Part shown: positions 4,596 to 61,654 of the stretch, one piece after another
Numbering within the stretch: position 1 is the stretch's first letter
How the letters are laid out: every line of letters starts with the position of its first letter
DNA from: Bacteroidales bacterium
GTDB taxonomy: Bacteria; Bacteroidota; Bacteroidia; Bacteroidales; PWNQ01
NCBI GenBank assembly: GCA_003557725.1
Contig: PWNQ01000165.1
Coordinates: 690-64,689 of the forward strand
Reading direction: 5' to 3'
DNA length: 64,000 nt
The notes under the pieces: generated by a model
What the model was told of the DNA's origin: nothing
Database searches by the model: none
Seen by the model: the letters and a program-made list of their open reading frames with translations, nothing else
Position numbers and translations under genes: made by a program

Positions 4596-4709
4596 GGCTT
4601 TTTGCCCCGGCCTCTATAGGGTGAAGCCGTGAAAATCAGTTATCTTTAGGGATGGGGCAGTGCTGATTTTCAACGGGTGTGAAAAATTTGTGTTTTTCGG
4701 CCGGACTCA
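4596..4709 (+). repeat. family-1 repeat, 5'-truncated long form (right terminal inverted repeat only)
   Basis: Aligns with the reverse complement of 61343-61458: ggctttttgccccgg..ta.agggtgaagcc..gaaaatcag...ctgattttca..gtgtgaaaaat.tgtgt...ggccggactca. Confidence 0.8.
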
Positions 4710-7647: not shown

Positions 7648-7719
7648 TGTGGCCGGTATAGAAAGGTTACTTTTGATTTTCAGAGGATATGAAAAATCTG
7701 TGTTTTTAGACCGGACTCA
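7648..7719 (+). mobile_element. family-1 MITE-like element, short form, degenerate left end
   Basis: ..ggccggtatagaaaggttacttttgattttcagaggatatgaaaaatctgtgtttttagaccggactca. Flanks are tccc/accc. Confidence 0.7.
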
Positions 7720-11728: not shown

Positions 11729-12475
11729 TTATTTCTCTTCATTATCTGCCTTCTTTTCTTTGGCAGCTTCTTCCACAGTGTCCTCTTTTTTTGCAGGCTC
11801 CTCCTTTGCAGGTTCCTCCTTTGCTTTAGGTTCTTCCTTAGCTTTAGGCTCTTCCTTTGCAGGCTCCTCTTTAGCAGGTTCTTCTTTTTCCGCAGGTTTT
11901 TCTTTGTCTGCTTCTTTCTCTGCGGGTTCTGTTTTGGCTACTGGTTCTTCTTTTTCGGTTACTGGTTCTTTTTGTTCAGGTTCTTCGGTTGCTGCTTCTT
12001 CTTCACCTTCCATTTCTGCCTTTCTCATTTTCGCAATTTGCGCAGCGCGGGCTTCATTAACCGTTTTTTCGGCTTCCAGTTGTTTCTTTTTGTCTTCCTT
12101 CATCTTCAGGCTAACGTCTTTGGAAACATGGCTGATCTTTTCTTCTTTTTCTTTCATCCAGGCATCGAATTTGGCATCGGCCTGTTCCTGGGTAAGCGCT
12201 CCTTTAGCAATCCCTTTTTGCAGGTGATTTTTGTAAAGAATACCTTTGTAAGACAAAATTGCACGTGCTGTTGCTGTGGGCTGTGCCCCTGTTTGCAGCC
12301 AGTACAGTGCCCGGTCGAAATCAATAGTGATCTCAGCAGGCTGAGGAAGCGGATCGTAGGTGCCAATCTTCTCTATATATCTTCCGTCCCGTGGTGCACG
12401 ACCATCCGCAATTACAATGTGAAAGTAAGGTCTTTTCTTCCTTCCACGTCGCTGTAATCTGATTTTTGTTGGCAT
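11729..12475 (-). CDS. rpsP: 30S ribosomal protein S16 with ~150-aa K/E/A/P-rich C-terminal extension
   Basis: MPTKIRLQRRGRKKRPYFHIVIADGRAPRDGRYIEKIGTYDPL is the S16 core. The tail contains EEPAKEEPAKEEPKAKEEPKAKEEPAKEEPAKKE. Confidence 0.9.
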   Translation of the reverse strand: MPTKIRLQRRGRKKRPYFHIVIADGRAPRDGRYIEKIGTYDPLPQPAEITIDFDRALYWLQTGAQPTATARAILSYKGILYKNHLQKGIAKGALTQEQADAKFDAWMKEKEEKISHVSKDVSLKMKEDKKKQLEAEKTVNEARAAQIAKMRKAEMEGEEEAATEEPEQKEPVTEKEEPVAKTEPAEKEADKEKPAEKEEPAKEEPAKEEPKAKEEPKAKEEPAKEEPAKKEDTVEEAAKEKKADNEEK

Positions 12476-12790: not shown

Positions 12791-12892
12791 AGCCGTCAGA
12801 CCGGCAATGGATTAACGATTATTAACATAACTGTTGGTGCCATTCCATTGTCAGTTGGAAATTTTTCCTTTGGTTTGCACTGATATATTCAT

Positions 12893-12963
12893 TGAGTCCG
12901 GTTTAAAAAGTGACTTTTGATTTTCAGCGGATGTGAAACACTTTTGTTTTTAGACCGGACTCA
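12893..12963 (+). mobile_element. family-1 MITE-like element, intact short form (71 bp)
   Basis: TIRs TGAGTCCGGTtTAAAAA / TTTTTAGACCGGACTCA; flanked by a perfect 4-bp direct repeat TCAT (12889-12892 and 12964-12967). Confidence 0.85.
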
Positions 12964-12987
12964 TCATTAAAAAAAAAAGGAGATTAT

Positions 12988-13455
12988 ATGTTAAAAGAGA
13001 ATTTGGTTAAAGGTTTATCTGTTGCTTTATTACTGTTTTTTGTATTACCGGCTGTTGCCCAGGTAGGAATCAGTCCTCAGCAACAGCAACAGTCCAATGA
13101 GGTAACGGATGAGCAGTTAAAAACTTTTGCAGCCATAACCGGGGAGCTGGAACAGATGCAAGCCAGCTCCCGTGAGGATATGGAGAAGATACTGGAAGAC
13201 CATGGGATGACTGTAGACCGGTTTAATGAAATTATGCAGGCCATGCAGACCGGAGCGGAAATAGAGTTGTCAGACGAGGAGCGGGAACGCTTTGAGCTGA
13301 TCAATGAAAAGATTCAGGAATACCAGCAGGGGAATCAGCAAAAAGCCATTGCTGTATTGGAAAAGCATGGGATGGACCAACAGCTTTACATGCAGATACA
13401 GCAGCAACTTCAGACGGATCCCCGCCTGCAGGAACGCTATGAAGAGTTGAAATAA
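12988..13455 (+). CDS. secreted Q/E-rich helical protein (DUF4168-like), unknown function
   Basis: Signal peptide, AGGAG 7 nt upstream of the ATG, and duplicated ...D/E..L..F..I...L motif halves. Confidence 0.55.
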   Translation: MLKENLVKGLSVALLLFFVLPAVAQVGISPQQQQQSNEVTDEQLKTFAAITGELEQMQASSREDMEKILEDHGMTVDRFNEIMQAMQTGAEIELSDEERERFELINEKIQEYQQGNQQKAIAVLEKHGMDQQLYMQIQQQLQTDPRLQERYEELK

Positions 13456-13470
13456 CGCATGTATCAAGAC

Positions 13471-13606
13471 ACATGTGTTAATGTGTATCTGACACCGTAT
13501 TGAAGTGTGTCTGACAGTATATTAATGTGTATTTGACACTCTGTTAATGTGTATTTGACACTCTGTTAATGTGTATTTGACAACATGTTAATGTGTTTTT
13601 GACACC
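13471..13606 (+). repeat. six tandem ~22-bp repeats, consensus TGTTAATGTGTATTTGACAC(TC)
   Basis: Head-to-tail units read directly from the sequence; each contains TTGACA. Confidence 0.85.
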
Positions 13607-13646
13607 ATAAAGCCTGTAGTTAATGGTTAGCTGCTGGCTTTATGGT
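13604..13646 (+). terminator. stem-loop downstream of the DUF4168-like gene
   Basis: ccataaagcc-(21 nt)-ggctttatgg; there is no strong T-run (tgtttatggtgtttatgg follows). Confidence 0.35.
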
Positions 13647-13747: not shown

Positions 13748-16700
13748 ATGGCAGAATTTGCACATCTTCATTTACATACCCAATATTCCATTCTTGATGG
13801 GGCATCCAATGTGGAGTTGCTTATGCAACGGGCGGCTGATGCCGGCATGAAATCGGTGGCCATCACCGACCATGGCAATATGTATGGTGTGATGCATTTC
13901 TTTAATGCGGCAAAAAAGCATGATATTAAGCCTATCATAGGTTGTGAGGTGTATGTAGCGGCCCGGGGACGCCACCGGCGTGATAATAAAGAGGACCGCG
14001 CAGGGCACCATCTTGTCTTATTGGCGAAAGACCAAAAAGGATATCATAACCTGGCTAAGCTGGTATCCAAAGGCTTTCTGGAGGGGTTTTATTATAAGCC
14101 CAGAGTGGATAAAGAGCTGCTTGAGCAATACAGTGAAGGGGTGATTGCCTGCAGTGCCTGCCTGGGTGGAGAGATCCCCAGGATGCTGGTCAACCACGGA
14201 CTGGAAAAGGGCAGGGAAGCGCTGAATACCTATAAAGCCATTTATGGAGAGGACTTCTATCTGGAGCTGCAACGCAACGGACACGACGGGCAGGAGCCGG
14301 TTAATAAAATGCTTATACAACTTAGCCAGGAAGAGAATGTTAAACTGATCTGCAGCAATGATGTGCATTTTATCAACAAGGAAGACCATGAAGCCCACAC
14401 CATACTCATACACCTGAACACGGGAAAGGATCTGGGGGAAGATTTGGATATGCACTATACCGGGCAGGAGTACATGAAAACACCGGAAGAGATGCAGGAG
14501 TTGTTCTCTGATGTGCCGGAAGCCCTTGAGGGGGTGGATGAAGTGGTGAGCAAGGTGGAGCGGTTTGAGCTTGCCAGGGAGGTTATTCTGCCGGTATTTC
14601 CGTTGCCCCAGGGCTTTACTGATGAAAATGAATACCTTCGCCATATTTCCTACCTGGGGGCCCGCAAGCGATACCCGGAGGTCAATGCTGAGGTAGAAGA
14701 GCGCCTGGATCACGAGCTGCAGATTATAAAAAATATGGGCTTTCCAGGATACTTTCTTATTGTTCAGGACTTTATCAATAAAGCCCGGGAAATGAATGTT
14801 ATCGTAGGGCCGGGGAGGGGGTCGGCGGCAGGATCTGCTGTAGCCTATTGTGTGGGAATAACAGATATTGACCCCATTAAATACAACCTGCTGTTTGAAC
14901 GCTTTCTTAACCCCGAGCGGGTCAATATGCCCGATGTGGATGTGGACTTTGACGATGAGGGCCGGGATAGGGTGTTGCAATATGTGGTGGACAAATATGG
15001 GGATGATAAAGTGGCACAGATCGTTACCTTTGGATCCATGGCTGCTCGCTCCAGCATCAGGGACGTGGCCAGGGTGCTGAAGCTGCCCCTGCCCGAAGCC
15101 GACCGCCTGGCCAAAATGGTGCCCGACACCCCCGGGACATCCCTCAAAGAGGTGCTGAAAAACGACCCCCAGCTTAAGAAAATCAAAGAAAATGAGGACA
15201 CCCTGGAGGGAAAAACCCTTAAGTTTGCCCGAATACTGGAAGGATCCGTGCGCAATACGGGAACACATGCCTGCGGAGTAATTATCGGACCGGAAAACCT
15301 TATGGAGTACCTGCCACTGGCTACCGCCAAAGACTCCAAATTACCCGTTACCCAGTATGACGGAAACTACGTGGAATCGGTGGGAATGCTTAAAATGGAC
15401 TTCCTGGGACTGAAAACACTGTCTATTATTAAGGATGCACTGAAAAACATTAATTTAAGGCATGGCAAAGATATTAGCGTGGATAATATCCCCCTGGATG
15501 ATGAAAAAACCTATGAGCTGTTTCAGCAGGGTAACACGGTAGCCACCTTTCAGTTTGAATCGGAAGGGATGAGAGAGCACCTGAAAAGGCTAAAACCCAC
15601 CAATATTGAAGACCTTATCGCCATGAATGCCCTTTACAGGCCCGGACCCATGGAGTTTATTCCACAGTTTGTGAACCGTAAGCAGGGAAAGGAAAAGGTG
15701 GATTACCCTCATCCGTTGCTGGAAGAGATACTCAAACCTACCTATGGCATCATGGTATACCAGGAGCAGATCATGCAAACCGCCCAGATATTGGGTGGCT
15801 TTTCTCTGGGTAATGCCGACCTGATGCGGCGGGCCATGGGAAAAAAGAAAATGGAGATCATGGAAGGGATGAAAAAACAATTCGTAAAAGGAGCTTACGA
15901 AACCCATGAAATCCCTGAAGAGAAATCACTTGCCGTATTTGCCGTTATGCAGGACTTTGCCAAATACGGCTTTAACCGCTCCCATGCTGCCGCTTACTCC
16001 TTTATAGCTTATAAGACAGGATACCTGAAGGCTCATTATACCGCTGAGTATATGGCTGCTGTACTTACCCACAACCTGCATGACATTGAGAAGAAGCTAA
16101 CACCCTTTATTTTAGACTGCCAGAGTAACGGTATCCCGGTACTGGGGCCGGATGTGAACGAATCTCATGCCAATTTCACAGTGAACCAAAACGGGGAGAT
16201 ACGCTTTGGAATGGCGGCCATTAAGGGAGTGGGGGAGAACGCCGTCAATTCCCTGGTGGAAGAGCGTGATGCCAATGGACCCTTTAGGGATATCTTCGAC
16301 CTGGTGAAACGCGTCAATTTTAAATCAGTAAACCGAAAGGCCCTGGAAGCCCTGGCCATGACCGGAGCATTCGATAACTTCCCCCACGCTCACCGGGCTC
16401 AATATCTTTACAGAGAATACCCCGAAGGAGAGACCTTTTTGGAAAAGCTGATCAAGCATGGGCAGGCCTACCAGCGATCAAAAGACAGCACCCAGCAATC
16501 CCTGTTTGGAGGTACTGAAGAAGTGGAAATCGAAAACCCTCAAATGCCACAATGTGAACCGGCGCCGGCACTGCAGCAGCTAAAACAGGAAAAGGATATG
16601 ATCGGCTTCTACGTATCCGGACACCCGCTGGATGAATATAAACTGGAAGTAGAGTACCTTACCAATATAACCATGGAAGAGGTGAGCAGTAACATGGAAA

Positions 16701-17239
16701 GGTATGATTCCAAAGAGGTGATCATTGCCGGAATGGTCAGCGATGCAGCAAAACGTATCGGCCGGAATGGGAAAGAATTTGGCACAATGACAGTGGAAGA
16801 CTATTCCGGCTCTTTGAAGTTTATGCTGTTCGCAGAAGACTATCTGAGAAATAAACACTTTCTGGAAGCTGGCCAGTTTGTGATGGTTTGGGCCAAAGTA
16901 CAGCGAAACTATTACGACCAAACCAAACTGGAGGTGAAACCCAAAAGGATCATTTTGCTTTCAGAAGCCCTGGAAAAGCGAGTCAATACCATTTGCCTGT
17001 TTCTGCCCCTTCAGAAGATCAATAGCACTCTGAATCGCCAAATGGCCCAAATGGTGGATGAAAACCCTGGAAAAGTACCCCTTAGCTTTGTGGTAAGCTT
17101 TGACCTTGAAGGAATGGAGGTGGGACGAAAACGAAACACCCTTACCCTTAGATCCAGATCCAAAAATGTGAACCCGGAAACATTTCTGAAAACAATTAAG
17201 GACACTTATCCGTTTATTAAGATTAAGATCAATGCATAA
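13748..17239 (+). CDS. dnaE: DNA polymerase III alpha subunit
   Basis: 1163 aa. PHP N-terminus HLHTQYSILDG...AITDHGN, polymerase core (MPDVDVDF), HhH and a C-terminal OB fold. Confidence 0.95.
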   Translation: MAEFAHLHLHTQYSILDGASNVELLMQRAADAGMKSVAITDHGNMYGVMHFFNAAKKHDIKPIIGCEVYVAARGRHRRDNKEDRAGHHLVLLAKDQKGYHNLAKLVSKGFLEGFYYKPRVDKELLEQYSEGVIACSACLGGEIPRMLVNHGLEKGREALNTYKAIYGEDFYLELQRNGHDGQEPVNKMLIQLSQEENVKLICSNDVHFINKEDHEAHTILIHLNTGKDLGEDLDMHYTGQEYMKTPEEMQELFSDVPEALEGVDEVVSKVERFELAREVILPVFPLPQGFTDENEYLRHISYLGARKRYPEVNAEVEERLDHELQIIKNMGFPGYFLIVQDFINKAREMNVIVGPGRGSAAGSAVAYCVGITDIDPIKYNLLFERFLNPERVNMPDVDVDFDDEGRDRVLQYVVDKYGDDKVAQIVTFGSMAARSSIRDVARVLKLPLPEADRLAKMVPDTPGTSLKEVLKNDPQLKKIKENEDTLEGKTLKFARILEGSVRNTGTHACGVIIGPENLMEYLPLATAKDSKLPVTQYDGNYVESVGMLKMDFLGLKTLSIIKDALKNINLRHGKDISVDNIPLDDEKTYELFQQGNTVATFQFESEGMREHLKRLKPTNIEDLIAMNALYRPGPMEFIPQFVNRKQGKEKVDYPHPLLEEILKPTYGIMVYQEQIMQTAQILGGFSLGNADLMRRAMGKKKMEIMEGMKKQFVKGAYETHEIPEEKSLAVFAVMQDFAKYGFNRSHAAAYSFIAYKTGYLKAHYTAEYMAAVLTHNLHDIEKKLTPFILDCQSNGIPVLGPDVNESHANFTVNQNGEIRFGMAAIKGVGENAVNSLVEERDANGPFRDIFDLVKRVNFKSVNRKALEALAMTGAFDNFPHAHRAQYLYREYPEGETFLEKLIKHGQAYQRSKDSTQQSLFGGTEEVEIENPQMPQCEPAPALQQLKQEKDMIGFYVSGHPLDEYKLEVEYLTNITMEEVSSNMERYDSKEVIIAGMVSDAAKRIGRNGKEFGTMTVEDYSGSLKFMLFAEDYLRNKHFLEAGQFVMVWAKVQRNYYDQTKLEVKPKRIILLSEALEKRVNTICLFLPLQKINSTLNRQMAQMVDENPGKVPLSFVVSFDLEGMEVGRKRNTLTLRSRSKNVNPETFLKTIKDTYPFIKIKINA

Positions 17240-21536: not shown

Positions 21537-21706
21537 AGTATGATAAATTGAATTGACGACTGGTAACCGGGCCGCCGCCAGGAAAACCCGGGCCGGCACA
21601 TACCCTTTATTTAATGTGCAATAATACAAAGATTCTGAATAATACAAGAGTCCGGTGTGAAGACACAAATATTTTTCAACCACTGAAACCTCCATGGCGA
21701 AAATTT

Positions 21707-21934
21707 TTTCGACACACAGGAGAATGATTATTTCCTTACCGGAAAGCTCCCGCGCTCGCCCCTCTGACTCCCCTAAAGGGGAGGACCGGGCCACCGCGCT
21801 CGCCCCTCTGACTCCCCTAAAGGGGAGGACCGGGCCACCGCACGCGCCCCTGTCCAAACCCTTGGGGGCCTGGACGAACAACGAATAAAATTCTAAACAG
21901 ATAAAACCCCATATTATTCGTGCATTCGTGGCAA
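21707..21934 (-). repeat. family-2 mosaic GC-rich repeat (copy 1) with internal 44-bp tandem duplication
   Basis: Shares ttgccacgaatgcacgaataatatg and ggcccggtcctcccctttaggggagt.agaggggcg.gcg.gggagctttccggtaaggaaataatcat with 53880-54143, in opposite orientation. The 44-bp unit gcgctcgcccctctgactcccctaaaggggaggaccgggccacc occurs at 21752-21795 and 21796-21839. Confidence 0.85.
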
Positions 21935-21946
21935 AAAATAAACATA

Positions 21947-21981
21947 TGAAAATCAAATATGATCTTTTTAGATCGGACTCA
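21947..21981 (-). repeat. family-1 repeat fragment (one arm with TIR)
   Basis: gaaaatcaaatatgatctttttagatcggactca matches the left arm of the short form in reverse. Confidence 0.6.
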
Positions 21982-26440: not shown

Positions 26441-26611
26441 AATTAACCCATTTTTCGCAAAAATACAACATATTTCCCTTGAACAAACACAACGGGTCAA
26501 ATGTGAGATGAAAAACAGACGCCCATTAGTAAATCGCCCGCTATCCAACTACCAAAGTATACCATAAGTTGCAACCTATAACCGATTAAATGGTTTTTGA
26601 ATTTTCAAATA

Positions 26612-26683
26612 TGAGTCCAATCTAAAAAGTTTACTTTTGATTTTCAGCGGATGTGAAAAATGAGTGTTTTTAGACCGGACTCA
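26612..26683 (+). mobile_element. family-1 MITE-like element, intact short form (72 bp)
   Basis: TIRs tgagtccaatctaaaaa/tttttagaccggactca; perfect 4-bp flanking duplication AATA (26608-26611 and 26684-26687). Confidence 0.85.
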
Positions 26684-26792
26684 AATATATAAAAACCAGT
26701 TTTTTATAAATGGGTTTCTAATAATGGGAAAAAATGCAATTATTATTTTTGAAATGGGCTATTTATGATTGGTTTTATTTGTGTGTAAAGTG

Positions 26793-26800
26793 TATTTTTG
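26793..26800 (+). promoter_or_regulatory. candidate -7 promoter box for the giant adhesin gene
   Basis: TATTTTTG lies ~110 nt upstream of the ATG at 26911. Confidence 0.25.
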
Positions 26801-26910
26801 TCCACGAATGTATAAATATCACATATTTTTATAATATGCTTATAATGGGCGATTTGTAGTTTTAGCAGGGCGCCCGCAGGATTAGTGAATAACCAAAAAA
26901 TATAATAATT

Positions 26911-29900
26911 ATGTGTATACCAGTACGATTAAAGAGCCTTTTCGGTTTTTTTGTTTTGGGAATGTTTATGTTCCCCGGCAATGTGGTGACAGGACAATCA
27001 TTTTCCGTTATAGATTCTTCTCATAACACCGTTGAGCTTTCCTTTAGCACTACCCAAACCGGAGTGCTTATTGCTTTCAGCGATGATGAGACTTTTGGTA
27101 GTCCTGCTGATGGAGCAACTTACAGTGCTGACCAGGATTTGGGTGATAACACAACGGTTATTTCTGTCGGGGATGTTAGCCCTTTTACCCATGATAATCT
27201 TTCTCCCGGCACCTATTATTATTACAGGGCCTGGTATTATGATGACAGTTATAATTATACTCTTATTGGTGATGCCAATGCCCGCACATTGAAGTATGAG
27301 CCGTCCTATCATGTAACCAGTTTCAGTGGTTCTCCTAACGGGGACACGGAGCTTTCGCTCACCTGGACCGATGCCGCAGGGTCGGTACTTCCTGATGGCT
27401 ACCTGATTAAGGGGTCAACCGTATCCTATGATGATATTGCAGCTCCGTCAGATGGCACAGAGGAAGCGGACAATGCACTGGTGAAAAACGTGGAATACGG
27501 GGCGGGGAGTGTGGCTTTTTCCGGCCTGGATGCCAATACCACACACTATTTCCGCATCTGGCCATATACCAACCAGGGAACACACATCGATTATAAACTG
27601 CATACCGGAACCCTGCCAAAAACAACCGTGAAAACGGAAAAATCCTCGCAATCGGATATTGTGGAACAGGCTGGGTTTGTCTATATAACCGATATTCCAT
27701 ATGCAAGTCATACCGGATCAGTGTCGAATGGTTCTCCCAGGCTATGGGCAATCACCATTCGTGACGGTGGTGATGGAAATGATGCGGATAATTTATCCAC
27801 CACGCTCACGGATTTAACCTTGAATATCAGTAATTATGCGTTTTTGAATGAGATCGGACTATATGAATCGGACGGAACTACCCCAATTGCAACTGCTTCA
27901 GTGGCTTCATCACAGGTTACTTTTTCCGGTTTGTCCATAGAGGCTCTGGATGATAATTCAGTGGACGTTATTATTCGTGCCACCTTTTCTACCACTGTGG
28001 ACGATAATGAACAAATATCTTTTTCTATTACGGATGGTGACGTTACAGCCGATCCGGCCGGATCCACTTTTGGCACCTTTTCACTATCCAGCAAAACGGA
28101 TGGAGGGAAAAATACCATTAATGTTACGGCCACCAAGCTCCACATCAGCCATGTGGATAATCCCGTGGATGTGAATTCGGACTTTAAATTGACGGTAGAA
28201 GCTGTGGACGGCAATGATAACCTGGATAAAGATGCTGCGGATCAGGTAACTTTGAGTCTGACTACCGGCAGCGGAATCCTAAGTTCTACTACCGGCCTGG
28301 CCCAACCCCTTTCGTTAGGAACTTATCAATGGACGGATTTACAATACGATACCGAAGAAACCTTTGCGATTGAGGCCGCAGCCGCAGGACTTACCAATGC
28401 CTCTACAGGCAACATTAGCGTGAACGCCTCTTCCGATAGCGAAGTGGAAGCCCCCTCAACCCAGATCGGCGTAACAACCATCGCTTCTACCGCCAATGAC
28501 ATTGGCAATGCTGTACAAGTGTTCGCCTTCAAAATCACTGATAAGGGCACCGGCGGTGGTCTTCCCACCAAAGTAACCAATATCCGCCTGAAGCCTGCAA
28601 CCGGCAATAACATCAGTTGGGCAGACCATATTCAAAATGTAGTTGTATATACTACAGATACCGTGACTACCGGAACAGTTAATATAACAGACAATAACAT
28701 TGATATTCCCATTTCATCCGGCAACCTGGATGTTACAGACGGGAGCTCCAAAGAGGTAACCATTTCCGTTTACCTGAACACCACCAATATTATCGATAAC
28801 GGCAGCCTGCAGATGAAAGTAGATAACGATCCCCACGGCTTCACCGCCGATGCTTCCGGAAGTGGTTTTGCAAGTGCATTTACTGCCGAGGTTGTCTCGA
28901 ATACGCATACCATTGACGTTGACGCCACCGAACTGGCATTTATCCAGCAACCCACAGAAGTCTATACCGGCTATGTCATGGACCCGCCTGTTACCGTAGA
29001 AGCTATAGATGCAAACGGAAACCGCGACCTGGATTATAATAACGACATTACACTTACTCCTGATAAATCATCCATTACCGGAACCGCTACTGAAACAGCA
29101 TCCTCCGGCCTGGCCACTTTTGATAATGTAATCTTTGATACAGAAGCTACCGGTGTAACGCTAACCGCAAGCAATGGTAGCCTGGCAGATGCAAGCAGTC
29201 AGCTATTTGACATCATTCTCTCAGAACCCCAAATAGAAATAACTCACGACGGAAGTCCGCTGGACCCTGCTGATGGAACCACAGACCTGGGTTTTGGCGA
29301 TGTGGAATGGGGCGCTAGCTCCACAATAACCCTGACAATAAAAAATACCGGAAAAGCAGACTTAGAGATCACAGGCATTACGGATGACGGTGATTTTACA
29401 GCCTCCGGACTGACTCCTACAGTAACCCTCATCCCCGATGCCAGCACGAACTTTGATATTACATTCAGCCCGACATCCCAGGGACCGATTACAGGAACGA
29501 TTAACGTAGCGAACAATGATACTGACCCTTTTTATATCAACGTCGAAGGACAGGGGATCTATAATTCCCAATCCGACATTATTGCCGATGGTGGCTTTAC
29601 GTATCCAGAAAATATCGAATATGTTGATTATATGGCTTCTAACATTACTGATGCAAACTATAATTCTGATGCCATTCAGGTTGGCCGGTTTACCATCCGC
29701 GACGGCGGAGCCAGTAACGATGCGGACGACCAGTCTACTGTTTTGCAGGATATCACATTTTCCGTTAGCAACCATGCCAACATCAACCGCATTGCCATTG
29801 TGGACGGGAGTACTGTAAAAGCTGAAGCTGCTGCTGCAGCCGATGTCAGCTTTAGCAGTCTGGGGCTGGAGGCACTGGATAACGGAGAGAAAAATTTTGA

Positions 29901-32900
29901 CATTTACGTAAGTTTTGATAACACCGTTACCGATAATGAGCAGGTACAACTAAGCATCACTTCCGTTACAGCCGGTACCGGCTCAGATTTCGCCACAGCC
30001 GATGGCGGTGGAGCTGAAACATCGGTCACCGGAGATGATAACCGTATTAATGTTACGGCCACCAAGCTTACCATCAGCCATGTGGATAATCCCGTGGATG
30101 TGAATACCGACTTTGCGCTGACGGTAGAAGCCCTGGACGGCAATGATAACCTGGATACCGACGCTACGGATGGGGTAACCCTGGATCTGAACACTGGCAG
30201 CGGTACCCTGAGTTCTGGTACCAACCTGACCCAAAACCTTTCATCAGGAACTTATCAATGGACAGACCTGCAATACGATACCGAAGAAACCTTCGCGATT
30301 GAAGCCGTGGCTTCAGGACTTACCAATGCTTCTTCCGGAGACATTAGCGTGAACCCCTCTTCCGACAGCGAAGTGGGAGAGCCCACAACCCAGATCAGCA
30401 CACAGACTATCGCTTCTACCGCCAATGACATCGGCGATGCCGTAGAAGTCTTCGCCTTCGACATCACCGATAATGGCGCCGGCGGTGGCCTCCCCACCAA
30501 AGTAACCAATATCCGCCTGAAACCGGCAACCGGAAATGACATCAGCTGGGCAGACCATATTCAAAATGTGGTTGTATCTACTACCAGCACGGTAACTACC
30601 GGAACTGTAGATATAACAAATAGCTACATTGATATTCCCATTTCATCCGGCAACCTGGATGTTACAGACGGGAGCTCCAAAGAGGTAACCATTTCCGTTT
30701 ACCTGAACACCACCAATATTACCGATAACGGCAGTCTGCAGATGAAAGTGGATGACGATCCCCACGGCTTCACCGCCGATGCTTCCGGAAGTGGTTTTGC
30801 AAGTACATTTACTGCCGAAGTTGTCTCTAATACACACACCATTGACGTCACCGCCACTACCCTGGCCTTTATCCAGCAACCCACAAATGTATATACGAAT
30901 TATACCATGGATCCGTCAGTTACAGTGGCGGCAACAGATGCCAATGGAAATCGCGACCTGGATTACACTACGGATTTAACGATTAAGGTCCACGCAACCG
31001 GTTCTGCGGATGGGGAGGAATTTACAGTTATTCCTGTTGCCGGCCTGGCCACTTTTGATGCTATTAGCTTTAATGACGGAGATGCAGAAAACGATGTACA
31101 CTTCAAAGCCGAAAGCGGAAGTCTTACATCTTCAGTTGATAGTGATAATTTTAATATTATCCTTTCCGTTCCGGAAATTAAAGTTACGCATAACTCCATT
31201 GAAGTAGCTCATGATGGCACAGTGACTTTCAGCGCCATTGAAGCGGGCACAACTACTACAAAGGATATTGTAATTCATAATACAGGCAAAGCCGATTTGG
31301 AGGTTTCGGGGCTGAACGTAACCGGTGGAAGCACCGGAGGGTTTAGTCTTGTAAATCCTCCCACAACATCTTTTACCATTATTCCTGATGGAGATCAAAC
31401 AATTACCGTGGAATTTGCACCCGATGCGGCTGATAGCTTTTTAGAGGCCCTTGAAATAACCCATGATGATGGGGTTGCTACTAGTCCATACCATGTTAAT
31501 TTATCCGGGGACGGGGATCCCAATAATGAATCGGATATTGTGGAACAGGATGGGTTTGTCTACCCAACGGATATTCAGCATGTTGATTATCAGTCTGGGG
31601 ATATTATTACTGATGAACTTGCTACTGATGCCATTGAGGTTGGTCAGTTTATTCTCCGGGATGGTGGCGATGGTGACGATGCAGATGGGCTGTCTACTAT
31701 TTTGGATGAGATTGTTTTCCATGTTTCCAATGATCAATATTTGAGACAGGTGGCACTGGTGGTGGATGGCAGTGTAGTCGTCAGTACAGCAGCAGGGTCA
31801 AGCGTTACATTTACTGGCTCTGGTTTAGTCACTGCCCCGGATAACGGGTCCAAGACATTTTCGCTATATGTAAGTTTTATGGAAAATGTTACGGATAATG
31901 AGCAGTTTCAGTTTACAATCACCGGCGTAACTGCAGGCAGCAACGGCTCGAATTTTGCGGCTTCTGATGGTGGTGGGGCATCCACATCTGTTGACGTGGG
32001 TAAAAATCGTATTGACGTCACCGCCACACAAATGGCCTTTGAGTCTGTTCCTTCTACGGTTACTTTAGGTAGTCCCTTTACCATACAGGTGAAACCTGTA
32101 GACGGCCATGGCAACGTGGACCTGGATGAAGACCGGTCTGTGGACATTAGCCTGGAGTCGGGAACAGGGGCCTTGTATACGGCGGCGGCTTCAAAGGCCT
32201 TTGACAATGGCATAGCCCAATGGGATGACCTGGAGTATAATGTAGCGGAAATGTTTAAGGTGAAGGTGACAGATCCGGCTTCTTCCGGCGCTTTCAGTGA
32301 AATTATTACAGGCGATATTGATGGACAAATGCCTTCCTCACCTGACGCACCATCCGTAACCATTCAGTACATTGCCGATGACCAGATGAGCATTCAGGTA
32401 ACCAAACCCTCAGGTACTTTTGGAACCGACTGGGACGGCTATGTTGTCTTTGCACGGGAAGGCAGCTCCAATGATGCCGTGGTGGATAATACTGACCTGG
32501 ATGATTTCACGGCAGATGCCAATTACGGTGATGGAACACCCAACAACAACAGCTATTGTGTTGCCAAAGTTACCACCGATGCTAATGCGACTATAACAGT
32601 TACTGGTCTTACCCTCGGCAACGACTACTATTTTGTTGCCTATGCTGCTAACCAGATAAATGGTAACGATAACGACCTGTGGTCTGTTGCATCCTCACAA
32701 GTAAGTGATAAGGCAGATGTTCAAGGCGTTTACTGGCAGGGAGCATATCCCGGAAATACGAAAGTTACGGTACAATGGAATAACTATACTGCTACTCCGG
32801 GTGACTGGTGGGATGAGGTTATGGTGGTAGGCCGGGAAGGGGATGTGGTGGATTATAACGCCCCTTCCGGAGACGGCTCAGCTTATACGGCTAACGCTGT

Positions 32901-34149
32901 CTTTAAGTCGGGCGATCAGGTGGGAGAAGGATATGTGGTGTACAGGGGCATTGGAGAAAGTGTTACAGTTTCAGGGCTTGACAACGGCACGGCGTACCAC
33001 TTCCGCATTTTTGTCCGAAGGGGGACTCAATGGACTGATGCTTCTCATTATGAGGATGTTTCAGCCACCCCCACAGGGGGTGAGGGGCAACTGGTCATTA
33101 CCGAAGTGGCCGCCTACCACGAAGATGACACCAAAAATTATATTGAACTATATAATGCGGGGGATGAGGATGTAAACCTGAATGGGTGGGTTTTGGACCA
33201 GGAAGGTGTTAATGTGAATAGTATTACATTAAGCGAGGATAATCAGCATAACACCAGTGCGAACATGCTTTTGAGGCCCGGGGAGTATGCATTGATTGTA
33301 AAAAGCAACTGGGACGGACTGAAGTCGGAGTTTGGCATTGCCGGTGATGTGCCCATGTTTACTGCTTCAGGTGGTAATATCCCCTCACTGGCCGGGGGAG
33401 AGTACTATGTATTTTATCCTCCTGGAGCTAAGTCTACTACAGATGAGTTTGGTTCGGGTGCTACCTTTCAGGCGGAAGACGGTGTGTGCTATGAGCGGAA
33501 CTATATTCCCAACAGTGACGGAACCTTGCTAGAGAGCTGGAATGAGGTATCCAGTACATCTTACACCTATACTCCGGCGTCGGATAATACCAACCCGTTG
33601 CCGGTGGAGTTGGTGGTGTTCCGCCTGGACCGCGACAAGGACGCTGTGAATATTCAGTGGGTGACGGCTTCAGAGGTCAACAACAGCCACTTTGACCTGC
33701 AGCGGTCGGTGGATGGGGTAGCATTCCTTACCGTTACCACAGTGGCCGGGGCCGGAAACAGCAATGAGCTTATAGATTACCACTTCACCGACTATCCCGG
33801 GCATAATGGAGTGGTGTATTACCGTTTAAAGCAGTATGACTATGATGGTACAAGTACGGCGGGACCGGTAAAGGCTGTTGACATGCGCACTGCTGCTCCC
33901 CAAATGACCTTGTCGGCACCCTGGGTGAATCGCCAAAAGGTAAATACCCGTGTGGAGCATGTGGCCACAGGTGAAAAGCTGGTTGTACAGTTGTTCAATA
34001 TGCAGGGACGGCTTGTCACCTCCAGGGAGGTACGTGCACAGGGAACTTCGTTTACTCTTCAGGTGGACATGAACGGCAATCCTCACGGGATTTATATTAT
34101 CCGTGTGGTCAGCCGTGATCACCGGGTCAGCAAGCGGTTCTACTTCTGA
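26911..34149 (+). CDS. giant (2412 aa) repetitive cell-surface protein with lamin-tail domain and T9SS C-terminal sorting domain
   Basis: Signal peptide; three ~640-650-aa super-repeats (starting SDIVEQAGFVY / SDIIADGGFTY / SDIVEQDGFVY) containing Ig-like and choice-of-anchor-D-like (NTGKADLEI) modules; FN3-like region; LTD (LVITEVAAYHEDDTKNYIELYNAGDEDVNLNGWVL); C-terminal VQLFNMQGRLV...GIYIIRVV CTD. Confidence 0.9.
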   Translation: MCIPVRLKSLFGFFVLGMFMFPGNVVTGQSFSVIDSSHNTVELSFSTTQTGVLIAFSDDETFGSPADGATYSADQDLGDNTTVISVGDVSPFTHDNLSPGTYYYYRAWYYDDSYNYTLIGDANARTLKYEPSYHVTSFSGSPNGDTELSLTWTDAAGSVLPDGYLIKGSTVSYDDIAAPSDGTEEADNALVKNVEYGAGSVAFSGLDANTTHYFRIWPYTNQGTHIDYKLHTGTLPKTTVKTEKSSQSDIVEQAGFVYITDIPYASHTGSVSNGSPRLWAITIRDGGDGNDADNLSTTLTDLTLNISNYAFLNEIGLYESDGTTPIATASVASSQVTFSGLSIEALDDNSVDVIIRATFSTTVDDNEQISFSITDGDVTADPAGSTFGTFSLSSKTDGGKNTINVTATKLHISHVDNPVDVNSDFKLTVEAVDGNDNLDKDAADQVTLSLTTGSGILSSTTGLAQPLSLGTYQWTDLQYDTEETFAIEAAAAGLTNASTGNISVNASSDSEVEAPSTQIGVTTIASTANDIGNAVQVFAFKITDKGTGGGLPTKVTNIRLKPATGNNISWADHIQNVVVYTTDTVTTGTVNITDNNIDIPISSGNLDVTDGSSKEVTISVYLNTTNIIDNGSLQMKVDNDPHGFTADASGSGFASAFTAEVVSNTHTIDVDATELAFIQQPTEVYTGYVMDPPVTVEAIDANGNRDLDYNNDITLTPDKSSITGTATETASSGLATFDNVIFDTEATGVTLTASNGSLADASSQLFDIILSEPQIEITHDGSPLDPADGTTDLGFGDVEWGASSTITLTIKNTGKADLEITGITDDGDFTASGLTPTVTLIPDASTNFDITFSPTSQGPITGTINVANNDTDPFYINVEGQGIYNSQSDIIADGGFTYPENIEYVDYMASNITDANYNSDAIQVGRFTIRDGGASNDADDQSTVLQDITFSVSNHANINRIAIVDGSTVKAEAAAAADVSFSSLGLEALDNGEKNFDIYVSFDNTVTDNEQVQLSITSVTAGTGSDFATADGGGAETSVTGDDNRINVTATKLTISHVDNPVDVNTDFALTVEALDGNDNLDTDATDGVTLDLNTGSGTLSSGTNLTQNLSSGTYQWTDLQYDTEETFAIEAVASGLTNASSGDISVNPSSDSEVGEPTTQISTQTIASTANDIGDAVEVFAFDITDNGAGGGLPTKVTNIRLKPATGNDISWADHIQNVVVSTTSTVTTGTVDITNSYIDIPISSGNLDVTDGSSKEVTISVYLNTTNITDNGSLQMKVDDDPHGFTADASGSGFASTFTAEVVSNTHTIDVTATTLAFIQQPTNVYTNYTMDPSVTVAATDANGNRDLDYTTDLTIKVHATGSADGEEFTVIPVAGLATFDAISFNDGDAENDVHFKAESGSLTSSVDSDNFNIILSVPEIKVTHNSIEVAHDGTVTFSAIEAGTTTTKDIVIHNTGKADLEVSGLNVTGGSTGGFSLVNPPTTSFTIIPDGDQTITVEFAPDAADSFLEALEITHDDGVATSPYHVNLSGDGDPNNESDIVEQDGFVYPTDIQHVDYQSGDIITDELATDAIEVGQFILRDGGDGDDADGLSTILDEIVFHVSNDQYLRQVALVVDGSVVVSTAAGSSVTFTGSGLVTAPDNGSKTFSLYVSFMENVTDNEQFQFTITGVTAGSNGSNFAASDGGGASTSVDVGKNRIDVTATQMAFESVPSTVTLGSPFTIQVKPVDGHGNVDLDEDRSVDISLESGTGALYTAAASKAFDNGIAQWDDLEYNVAEMFKVKVTDPASSGAFSEIITGDIDGQMPSSPDAPSVTIQYIADDQMSIQVTKPSGTFGTDWDGYVVFAREGSSNDAVVDNTDLDDFTADANYGDGTPNNNSYCVAKVTTDANATITVTGLTLGNDYYFVAYAANQINGNDNDLWSVASSQVSDKADVQGVYWQGAYPGNTKVTVQWNNYTATPGDWWDEVMVVGREGDVVDYNAPSGDGSAYTANAVFKSGDQVGEGYVVYRGIGESVTVSGLDNGTAYHFRIFVRRGTQWTDASHYEDVSATPTGGEGQLVITEVAAYHEDDTKNYIELYNAGDEDVNLNGWVLDQEGVNVNSITLSEDNQHNTSANMLLRPGEYALIVKSNWDGLKSEFGIAGDVPMFTASGGNIPSLAGGEYYVFYPPGAKSTTDEFGSGATFQAEDGVCYERNYIPNSDGTLLESWNEVSSTSYTYTPASDNTNPLPVELVVFRLDRDKDAVNIQWVTASEVNNSHFDLQRSVDGVAFLTVTTVAGAGNSNELIDYHFTDYPGHNGVVYYRLKQYDYDGTSTAGPVKAVDMRTAAPQMTLSAPWVNRQKVNTRVEHVATGEKLVVQLFNMQGRLVTSREVRAQGTSFTLQVDMNGNPHGIYIIRVVSRDHRVSKRFYF

Positions 34150-34212
34150 TAGCCGAAAGCCACAATAGTAATTATGTGAGCCTTTTGGTCTTTTTACGCC
34201 TGAGGGCCTGAG

Positions 34213-34258
34213 CAAAAAAAGAGCTGCCTGGAAAAATCATTCCGGGCAGCTCTTTTTA
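34213..34258. terminator. bidirectional rho-independent terminator
   Basis: aaaaaaagagctgcc-loop-ggcagctcttttt between convergent genes. Confidence 0.65.
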
Positions 34259-34318
34259 TATGCCTTATTTTTCCGGCGGTCACAGAAAAAAGTATCCGAT
34301 TTATAAATTGACCTCCTC

Positions 34319-35221: not shown

Positions 35222-35293
35222 TGATTCCGGTCGAAAAACACAAATTTTTTATGTCCGCTGAAAATCAAAAGTAACCTTTTTAGAATGGACTCA
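35222..35293 (-). mobile_element. family-1 MITE-like element, short form, reverse orientation, slightly degenerate
   Basis: tgattccggtcgaaaaa...catccgctgaaaatcaaaagtaacc...tttttagaatggactca; flanks ctct/ctat. Confidence 0.75.
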
Positions 35294-40509: not shown

Positions 40510-40538
40510 CCGGCCCCTAAAGGGTGAAGCCGGACTCA
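40510..40538 (+). repeat. family-1 repeat remnant
   Basis: ccggcccctaaagggtgaagcc is joined directly to the terminal ggactca. Confidence 0.55.
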
Positions 40539-53879: not shown

Positions 53880-54143
53880 TTGCCACGAATGCACGAATAA
53901 TATGCTACTCCTCACATCCCACGCATCACACCCAAACGCTCCGCGCCACACACCAAACCCAAATCCCTATGCCCCATGCCCCCGGCCCCTAAAGGGGAGG
54001 GCCATCGCGCATGGTTGCCTCACCAACGTTTCTTCACCGCAAGCTGCCGCGGGTTGGCCCGGTCCTCCCCTTTAGGGGAGTTAGAGGGGCGCGCGTGGGA
54101 GCTTTCCGGTAAGGAAATAATCATCCCCCTGTGTGTCAAAAGC
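53880..54143 (+). repeat. family-2 mosaic GC-rich repeat (copy 2)
   Basis: See 21707-21934. Contains the palindrome ctcccctttaggggag and an upstream inverted partner cccctaaaggggagg. Confidence 0.85.
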
Positions 54144-61300: not shown

Positions 61301-61342
61301 GAACCGCTTTTTTTTGAAATTTATAGATAGTCTAAATAAGAA

Positions 61343-61495
61343 TGAGTCCGGTCTGGATACACACATTTTTCACATCCGCTGAAAATCAGCACCGCTTTAT
61401 AGATGGGGCAAAGCTGATTTTCAGCGGCTTCACCCTTTAGGGCCCCGGGGCAAAAAGCCAATGAAAATCGAAAGTAACCTTTTAGACCGGACTCA
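61343..61495 (-). mobile_element. family-1 MITE-like element, intact long form (153 bp)
   Basis: TIRs tgagtccggtct.../...agaccggactca; perfect 4-bp flanking duplication AGAA (61339-61342 and 61496-61499). Carries an ~82-bp internal module with the hairpin gctgaaaatcag...ctgattttcagc. Confidence 0.85.
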
Positions 61496-61654
61496 AGAAT
61501 ATTTAACAGGAGCCATAGAATAAATCTGAAATATAGCAATTGGTATCTTAGAGCCCTGCTCCTGAAAGCCAGAGGGGGTGCATAGTGTGATTTATGGACT
61601 GCTTGTTTACGCCTTTTGAGAATTGCTTACTTTTGGCATGTGATAAATCGTATT

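Follow-up and report, generated by a model that had tools for sequence, protein, structure and literature searches.

A sequence of about 70 bp, bounded by inverted repeats, is present at several places in a 64,000-nucleotide window of the genome of an uncultured salt-lake Bacteroidales, and the locus at 12893-12963 raises the question of what kind of element this is and what brought it there. The window, by which we mean the whole stretch of DNA that was analysed, corresponds to positions 690-64689 of contig C129 of an assembly of 2.82 Mb, which consists of 236 contigs and has a G+C content of 46.7%. At 12893-12963 the window reads TGAGTCCGGTTTAAAAA...TTTTTAGACCGGACTCA. An earlier note, made from the sequence alone, had interpreted this as one copy of a family of transposed MITE-like elements, and not as a conserved regulatory motif, with 17-bp inverted repeats ending in TG...CA and with 4-bp target-site duplications. 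When up to three mismatches are allowed, the window contains 11 occurrences of the terminal 17-mer; shuffled sequences contain 0.13 on average, and 0 of 100 shuffles reached 11. As set out below, we regard it as very probable that the repeat is a non-autonomous MITE family that was moved recently by an IS1182-like transposase encoded elsewhere.

The element has a short form with a core of 70 bp and a long form with a core of 151 bp, corresponding to 72 and 153 bp in the boundaries used at first. The copies and fragments in the window are the following.

4596-4708 (4596-4709 by the first count), plus strand: long-form MITE lacking the left ~38 nt and hence the left inverted repeat.
7649-7718, plus strand: short-form MITE whose left inverted repeat has decayed (GTGGCCGGTATAGAAA); flanking 6-mers ATCCCT and AACCCT, matching at 5 of 6 positions.
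12894-12962, plus strand: short-form MITE (nhmmer E = 2.7e-20); flanking 6-mers TTCATT (12888-12893) and ATCATT (12963-12968), matching at 5 of 6 positions.
21647-21981, minus strand: composite of 335 bp with GAGTCC-type ends, whose interior (approximately 21684-21958) belongs to a second high-copy repeat family.
26613-26682, plus strand: short-form MITE flanked on both sides by AAATAT (26607-26612 and 26683-26688), a perfect 6-bp duplication.
35223-35292, minus strand: inverted short-form MITE; flanking 6-mers AATAGT and AAGAGT (in the orientation of the element), matching at 5 of 6 positions.
40510-40538, plus strand: internally deleted remnant of 29 bp, in which part of the long-form insert is fused to the right end (CCCTAAAGGGTGAAGCCGGACTC).
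61344-61494, minus strand: old long-form MITE with a 151-bp core that shares ~82% identity with the long-form consensus; flanked on both sides by AAGAAT (61338-61343 and 61495-61500), a perfect 6-bp duplication.

Every copy and fragment that had been listed from the sequence alone was thus found at its place. The supposed fragment at 21947-21981 is indeed present there, but it is one end of the 335-bp composite, the second end of which is AGAGTCCGGTGTGAAGA. Similarly, the three flanking 4-mers that had been quoted, TCAT, AATA and AGAA, all exist, but AGAA belongs to the long form and not to the copy at 35222; the flanking 4-mers of the 35222 and 7648 copies match at three of four positions. 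Perfect 6-mers flank the 26612 and 61343 copies, and the remaining three full copies match at five of six positions.

All copies in the window are intergenic, as had been stated, and their neighbours include housekeeping genes (tex, an M16 peptidase gene and truA). The copy at 12894-12962 has rpsP (11729-12475, minus strand) on one side and a DUF4168 gene (12988-13455) on the other, with the ATG of the latter following the copy after 25 nt; the 7648 copy lies between a TPR protein gene and tex, and the one at 61344-61494 between a NuoE-like gene and truA. No Rfam family reached its threshold on any of the window copies, and the only Rfam matches in the window were RNase P RNA and two tRNAs. 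As a separate observation, the ribosomal protein S16 gene next to the 12893 copy encodes a C-terminal extension of ~180 amino acids with purine-rich repeats of 18-nt periodicity, which appear pyrimidine-rich on the plus strand.

A profile search of the whole assembly with nhmmer (E<1e-3) returned 254 separate loci, covering 23.4 kb or 0.83% of the assembly, which supports the proposal of a dispersed family. These comprise 107 loci of short-form size and 39 complete long forms, the rest being partial. The core is bounded by 16-bp terminal inverted repeats, GAGTCCRGTCTAAAAA and TTTTTAGACCGGACTC, and contains no transposase gene, the longest open frame being one of 50 codons that lacks a start codon. 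In size, absence of a gene, inverted repeats, a duplication that varies between sites and number of copies, the family is a MITE family. What distinguishes the long form from the short one is a palindromic insert of 81 bp, located between 13-bp direct repeats (TGATTTTCAGCGG). Both forms fold into a long hairpin, the short form as DNA with -12.5 kcal/mol (z = -4.4) and the long form as RNA with -67.7 kcal/mol (z = -6.9). Mean pairwise identity is 81% among short-form copies (n = 79), and 91.5%, and up to 99%, among long-form copies (n = 25); the short form is diverged and the long form is younger. The long form is common to the genus and has undergone a recent burst in this species. The short form probably derived from the long form by deletion between the 13-bp direct repeats, a direction that we infer. 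Of the 472 contig ends, 26 to 35 are located inside a copy or within 130 nt of one, and many contigs end ~120 nt into a long form, which implies that the long form is abundant and uniform enough to break the assembly.

The position of the true ends of the element matters for the family to which it is assigned. Duplications were analysed for 105 full copies with permutation controls. With the boundaries used at first, a perfect 4-mer repeat flanks 49 of these copies, whereas permuted data had 1.8 such copies on average and never more than 7, and at other offsets there were 0 to 5. However, among these 49 copies an A precedes the left 4-mer in 86% and a T follows the right 4-mer in 88%. In 48 of the 49 copies, including all six that have A instead of T, the base preceding GAGTCC is identical to the one at position 6 of the right-hand repeat. 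The combinations of the supposed first base and the target base are T/T in 42 copies, A/A in six, A/T in one and T/A in none (Fisher p = 5e-7). The supposed last base of the element also tracks the target, the matching cases other than A being G/G once and T/T twice. Because their identity changes with that of the target, the outer T and A are target bases; the element therefore runs from GAGTCC to GGACTC and the duplication is 6 bp long. Perfect 6-mers are indeed present at 43 of the 105 copies, against 0.97 by permutation, while lengths of 5 and 7 each fit only two copies. The match rate is flat over the six positions of the duplication (0.73-0.81), and 36 different 6-mers are found among the duplications. 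The target is AT-rich and has the form A-NNNN-T in 34 of the 43 perfect duplications. In the sister species, perfect 6-mers flank 16 of 21 copies (for example, TTAATT, TAGCAT and ATATAA), and unrelated MITEs of other families likewise have 6-bp duplications, such as TACAAT, TTTATT and ATTAAA. The duplication proposed earlier is thus 6 bp at A-NNNN-T and not 4 bp, and the 17-bp repeats with TG...CA termini resulted from counting target bases as part of the element; the repeats are 16 bp long and end in GAG...CTC.

This correction bears on the transposases that had been suggested in the earlier note. When the T and A are counted as part of the element, its ends become TG...CA and the flanking repeat 4 bp, which would suit a MITE moved by an element of the IS3, IS5, IS701 or IS1380 families. 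The corrected ends and the 6-bp duplication speak against this. For IS3, the lead that had been favoured, neither TG...CA ends nor a duplication of 3-5 bp nor a two-ORF, frameshifted rve transposase was found: the T and A belong to the target, and the elements with matching ends described below encode a single DDE_Tnp_1-type ORF. IS5, IS701 and IS1380 do not fit either, since the ends match those of an IS1182-like clade. A further candidate of this kind is encoded in the bin itself, where the only DDE_Tnp_1 transposase is a 594-aa IS4/IS1634-like gene on contig C148. However, neither this element nor three PF01609 elements of sister genomes have an inverted repeat of the type found here, even when five mismatches are allowed, and all seven full-length insertion sequences with GAG(T/C)CC ends encode transposases of the DUF772/DDE_Tnp_1_6 clade. 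Mobilisation by any of these other families is highly unlikely in our judgement.

The location of the copies was analysed by using non-overlapping ORFs of at least 100 aa, which cover 88% of the genome, as a proxy for genes. Of 105 copies, 86 are intergenic (p = 8e-61). Among 91 classified copies, 35 are in divergent, 51 in tandem and five in convergent intergenic regions, where 27.5, 51.5 and 12, respectively, would be expected from the length of these regions (p = 0.047). The orientation of the copies relative to their neighbouring genes showed no bias (31:20, p = 0.16). The -7 box of Bacteroidetes promoters is TAnnTTTG. The sequence TACTTTTG in the left part of the element, considered as a promoter box, matches this motif, yet there is no orientation bias that would back a promoter role. 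The location fits a choice of AT-rich targets combined with selection against insertions inside genes, and not a terminator or promoter element.

Several of these properties could also be expected of a REP/REPIN-like palindrome spread by a RAYT (an IS200/IS605-type tyrosine transposase) or by recombination, or of a regulatory element, such as a terminator, a promoter or a small RNA, that is selected by the host. The strong intergenic bias, the good folding of both forms and the mild enrichment in divergent regions, which bear promoters, agree with such an origin. Convergent regions, where terminators would be located, contain only five of the classified copies, however, and the balanced orientation and the absence of an Rfam match also argue against it, as does the fact that between families of the order the interiors of the elements are wholly different while the 16-bp ends are unchanged. 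REP/REPIN elements would lack a target duplication, and the 6-bp duplication is present here. Moreover, neither spread by a RAYT nor conservation of a motif generates site-specific 6-bp duplications or clean empty sites, and both were found.

The empty sites were identified in a related population. DNA of the window is present in public metagenomes from a salt lake (2012), a soda lake (2019) and sediment (2025), and no RNA run was found to contain the region. The sediment metagenome, which we refer to as X2, contains a population that is ~98-99% identical to this genome; the data on empty sites are from assembled contigs (Logan), not raw reads, and concern this one other population. At C226:3906-4058, the two flanks are contiguous in an X2 contig, which lacks exactly 157 bp, and they have six letters in common where they meet. 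The same was found at C108:20836-20988, where a contig of 57 kb skips exactly 157 bp and again has six shared letters at the joint. At C106:25113-25265, 200 bp are skipped and 43 other letters are present instead, a net difference of 157. As 157 bp is the sum of the 151-bp element and one 6-bp repeat, these are unoccupied targets that retain a single copy of the target. The fourth assessable long-form site, on C24, is occupied in X2. So are the window copies at 12893, at 7648, which is spanned by an X2 contig, and at 35222, where X2 contigs break within the element. Young long copies are thus polymorphic and old window copies are shared, which is the pattern expected of a recently active family. 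On the basis of the empty sites, the REP-like or regulatory origin is refuted for the family as a whole, and as an explanation it is extremely improbable. The variable duplications, the approximately 250 loci, the intergenic bias and the three empty sites together bear out the view that this is a transposed MITE family and not a regulatory motif. In the sister species, orthologous empty sites were not found because the intergenic regions do not align, as is understandable for genomes whose coding DNA is only 65-72% identical.

Comparison with X2 also revealed larger strain-variable regions. In the window, X2 lacks 26479-34318 (7.8 kb) and has 87 other letters in its place. This island contains the MITE at 26612 and an ORF of 2412 aa (26911-34149) that is rich in repeats and has an internal duplication of 1929 bp. 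At three further loci, regions of 10-13 kb are missing from X2: 5144-15558 of L084 (G000:C226), 1492-13400 of L085 (G000:C106) and 480-13270 of L087 (G000:C126). Around the MITE of L087, the first MITE of L085 and the second of L084, X2 lacks the whole region. Since each of the missing regions has at least one edge at or next to a long-form MITE, the MITEs may mark or mediate strain-variable islands. A smaller difference concerns six tandem 22-bp repeats at 13478-13609 (consensus TTAAAGTGTATCTGACACCATA, 82% matches), located in a gap of 290 nt upstream of dnaE (13748-17239); X2 has one unit fewer, with 22 nt missing at 13522. These repeats could be binding sites for a regulator.

The ends of the element led to a candidate for the transposase that moves it. 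Searches were extended to 301 genomes of the order. The exact end TGAGTCCGNTNTAAAAR is present in 34 of these, while the reversed control gave almost none. Most of the matches are other MITEs of 71-199 bp that have the same ends and unrelated interiors; the interiors differ completely between families of the order and the 16-bp ends are constant. Twenty solitary exact ends elsewhere were either such MITEs of 71-199 bp or solo ends located beside genes for an MFS transporter, an S41 peptidase, SsnA and NapH. By searching the genomes carrying the end with the IS1182 model, we found L070 (G230:C438), an insertion sequence of 1985 bp that starts with GAGTCCAGTCTAAAAAGGTCACA, ends with GTGTTTTTATACCGGACTC and contains an ORF of 574 aa. 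At its left end, L070 shares 23 of 23 nt with L127, a MITE of a sister species, and 22 of 23 with the long-form consensus of this genome; at its right end, 18 of 19 positions agree with the MITE of this genome. The two ends are, in addition, asymmetric in the same way in L070 and in the MITE, with A versus G at position 7 and GGT versus CAC beside the repeat. An insertion sequence with matching ends thus exists outside this genome and its genus: L070 is from a different family of the order, and its own flanking 6-mers match at five of six positions.

IS1182-family elements, according to ISfinder, have a single ORF, a length of ~1.3-2 kb and inverted repeats. The protein encoded by L070 contains the domains PF05598 (DUF772; 33.8 bits, cut-off 23.1) and PF13751 (DDE_Tnp_1_6; 34.6 bits, cut-off 25.1), and its best NCBIfam match is IS1182 (NF033551), over the full length, with 124.9 bits (E = 4e-36), which is below the cut-off of 270 bits. 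L071 and L039 match PF13751 more weakly or not at all, and IS1182 is still their best NCBIfam match, with 111.9 and 98.0 bits, respectively. Homologues of this transposase are present in 15 of the 301 genomes, and every complete copy is bounded by GAG(T/C)CC ends. The elements of this clade, including the seven full-length ones mentioned above, are 1798-1985 bp long and have a single ORF of 547-578 aa and 16-bp inverted repeats. Two of them are flanked by perfect AATATT duplications, and several complete copies lack clean duplications. L070, L071, L103, L106, L108 and L112 share with the IS1182 family the domain architecture, the single long ORF and a length of 1.8-2.0 kb. They differ from it in that the clade transposases of ~570 aa score only 98-125 bits against the equivalog cut-off and share only 23-29% identity with typical members. 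In a Draconibacterium MAG of the same order, a genuine IS1182 element (362 bits) begins with TGAGTCCGCTTTAAAAGG. Judged by its protein sequence, the predicted helper is therefore a divergent IS1182-like clade of insertion sequences of 1.8-2.0 kb from other families of the same order (GTDB Bacteroidales); it has the domain architecture of IS1182 but not the curated family score, and the assignment to IS1182 is accordingly to be taken loosely.

Among plasmid-borne proteins, this transposase is closest to unnamed transposases of haloarchaeal plasmids (27% identity), and "IS1182 family" genes on Streptomyces plasmids are 24% identical to the helper-type transposase. The haloarchaeal plasmids with the nearest homologues (H1-H7) were isolated from hypersaline lakes of the Kulunda Steppe, a habitat like that of this genome. 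A search of genome contigs for loci related to two transposases gave no matches beyond the query and a single close copy; the insertion sequence obtained in this search has a decayed or truncated right end and no target duplication.

We infer that a DDE transposase of the L070 type, supplied in trans, would bind both ends of the element and insert it at AT-rich A-NNNN-T sites, making cuts staggered by 6 bp, after which gap repair would duplicate the target 6-mer.

Searches of the bin and of the eight genomes of the genus, which includes seven sister species, gave no homologue of the candidate transposase (genome search, tblastn, PF13751 and NF033551). The window had been said to contain no transposase, which is correct, and the absence extends to the whole bin and the genus. 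Pairs of ends located 0.5-6 kb apart in this genome enclosed ordinary host genes in every case and no transposase. The absence of a helper copy from the bin implies that the helper either resides on unbinned DNA or has been lost, and it poses a puzzle, namely that of a recently active family in a genus without a detectable helper transposase. In a sister species, L030 (G003:C346:1-1777) appears, as judged by eye, to be a remnant of an IS1182-type transposase split by an IS66-like element with tnpA/tnpB/tnpC-like ORFs.

The absence of the helper from all eight genomes searched would be explained if the family were a fossil whose helper has been lost from the genus, in which case the "empty" sites of X2 would be precise deletions between the 6-bp repeats. 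The high similarity of the long-form copies, however, and the fact that it breaks the assembly at so many contig ends, do not agree with a fossil. Three of the four assessable long-form sites are empty in X2 while the diverged short copies are shared, which is the pattern of young insertions, and three separate precise deletions across 6-bp repeats would be unlikely. In addition, contigs of multi-copy insertion sequences are routinely lost from bins. We consider a fossil family very unlikely, and recent mobilisation by a transposase encoded elsewhere remains the explanation that we prefer.

The 81-bp insert of the long form has the layout A'-X-A-X'-A', with the units TGATTTTCAGCGG, GCCCC..CCCTAAAGGG and CCGCTGAAAATCA. 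At least three other families of the order also carry this module, there without the GAGTCC ends. The stem formed by A' and A shows two-sided changes between families (GCGGC/GCCGC, GCTAC/GTAGC and ATGGC/GCCAT), and in the sister species the X hairpin CCCTAAAGGG is swapped for TCCGCC..GGCGGA. In an RNAalifold consensus fold of the module, the covariation term was +0.4, with four two-sided pairs that each occur in a single sequence, which gives no real support for covariation. Its presence elsewhere without the ends, the two-sided changes and the swapped hairpin would be compatible with a separately selected structured element, acting as single-stranded DNA or as RNA (for instance, as a two-hairpin switch), that was captured and spread by the MITEs; we regard this reading as unlikely.

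Other repeats share some of these features. The second high-copy family, located in the window at 21684-21958 and 54049-54141, has at least 60 BLAST matches in the genome with 86-98% identity, many of which fall at the ends of contigs. Its basic unit, CCGCGCTCGCCCCTCTGACTCCCCTAAAGGGGAGGACCGGGCCA, has a length of 44 bp and forms a perfect tandem pair at 21750-21837. Within the GAGTCC-ended element, this repeat occupies the internal position that the insert has in the long form. The palindrome CCCTAAAGGG or CCCCTAAAGGGG is found in three otherwise unrelated repeat families of the order, which are the long-form insert, the 44-bp unit and L045/L047 (genome G162).

Classical bacterial MITEs are the Correia elements of Neisseria, RUP of Streptococcus pneumoniae and Nezha of cyanobacteria. 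The helper of the Correia elements, which duplicate TA, is unknown, whereas RUP is moved by IS630 and Nezha by IS1341/IS200-605 elements. The family described here resembles them in having many intergenic copies, inverted-repeat ends, target duplications, hairpins and length variants generated by internal insertion or deletion; it differs from them in that its sequence is unrelated and its predicted helper belongs to another family. Among IS1182 members, IS1272 replaces hairpins and leaves no duplication (PMC5678879), in contrast to the fixed 6-bp duplication of the GAGTCC clade. Among described elements, the most similar is MITEPye1 of Paracoccus yeei, a MITE of the IS1182 family that is intergenic, forms a stem-loop and has 18-bp inverted repeats and short direct repeats (PMC11578231). 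Like the family found here, MITEPye1 is small and gene-less, with IS1182-like ends of ~18 bp and a long stem-loop, and its authors proposed mobilisation in trans (PMC11578231). However, it is present in one to three copies per chromosome and has 4-bp direct repeats (PMC11578231), compared with the ~250 loci and 6-bp duplications found here. It is also from another phylum and unrelated in sequence, and in the present case the helper is absent from the genome.

As selfish DNA, the family is of an ordinary type. It documents a clade related to IS1182, as yet unnamed, that has GAGTCC ends and a fixed 6-bp duplication at A-N4-T, and that has spawned unrelated MITE families across the order. It also provides a clean example of how target bases counted as element bases can mislead the assignment to a family. 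The family accounts for a good part of the fragmentation of the bin and, as its insertions differ between the samples of 2012 and 2025, they can be used as strain markers for soda-lake and salt-lake Bacteroidales.
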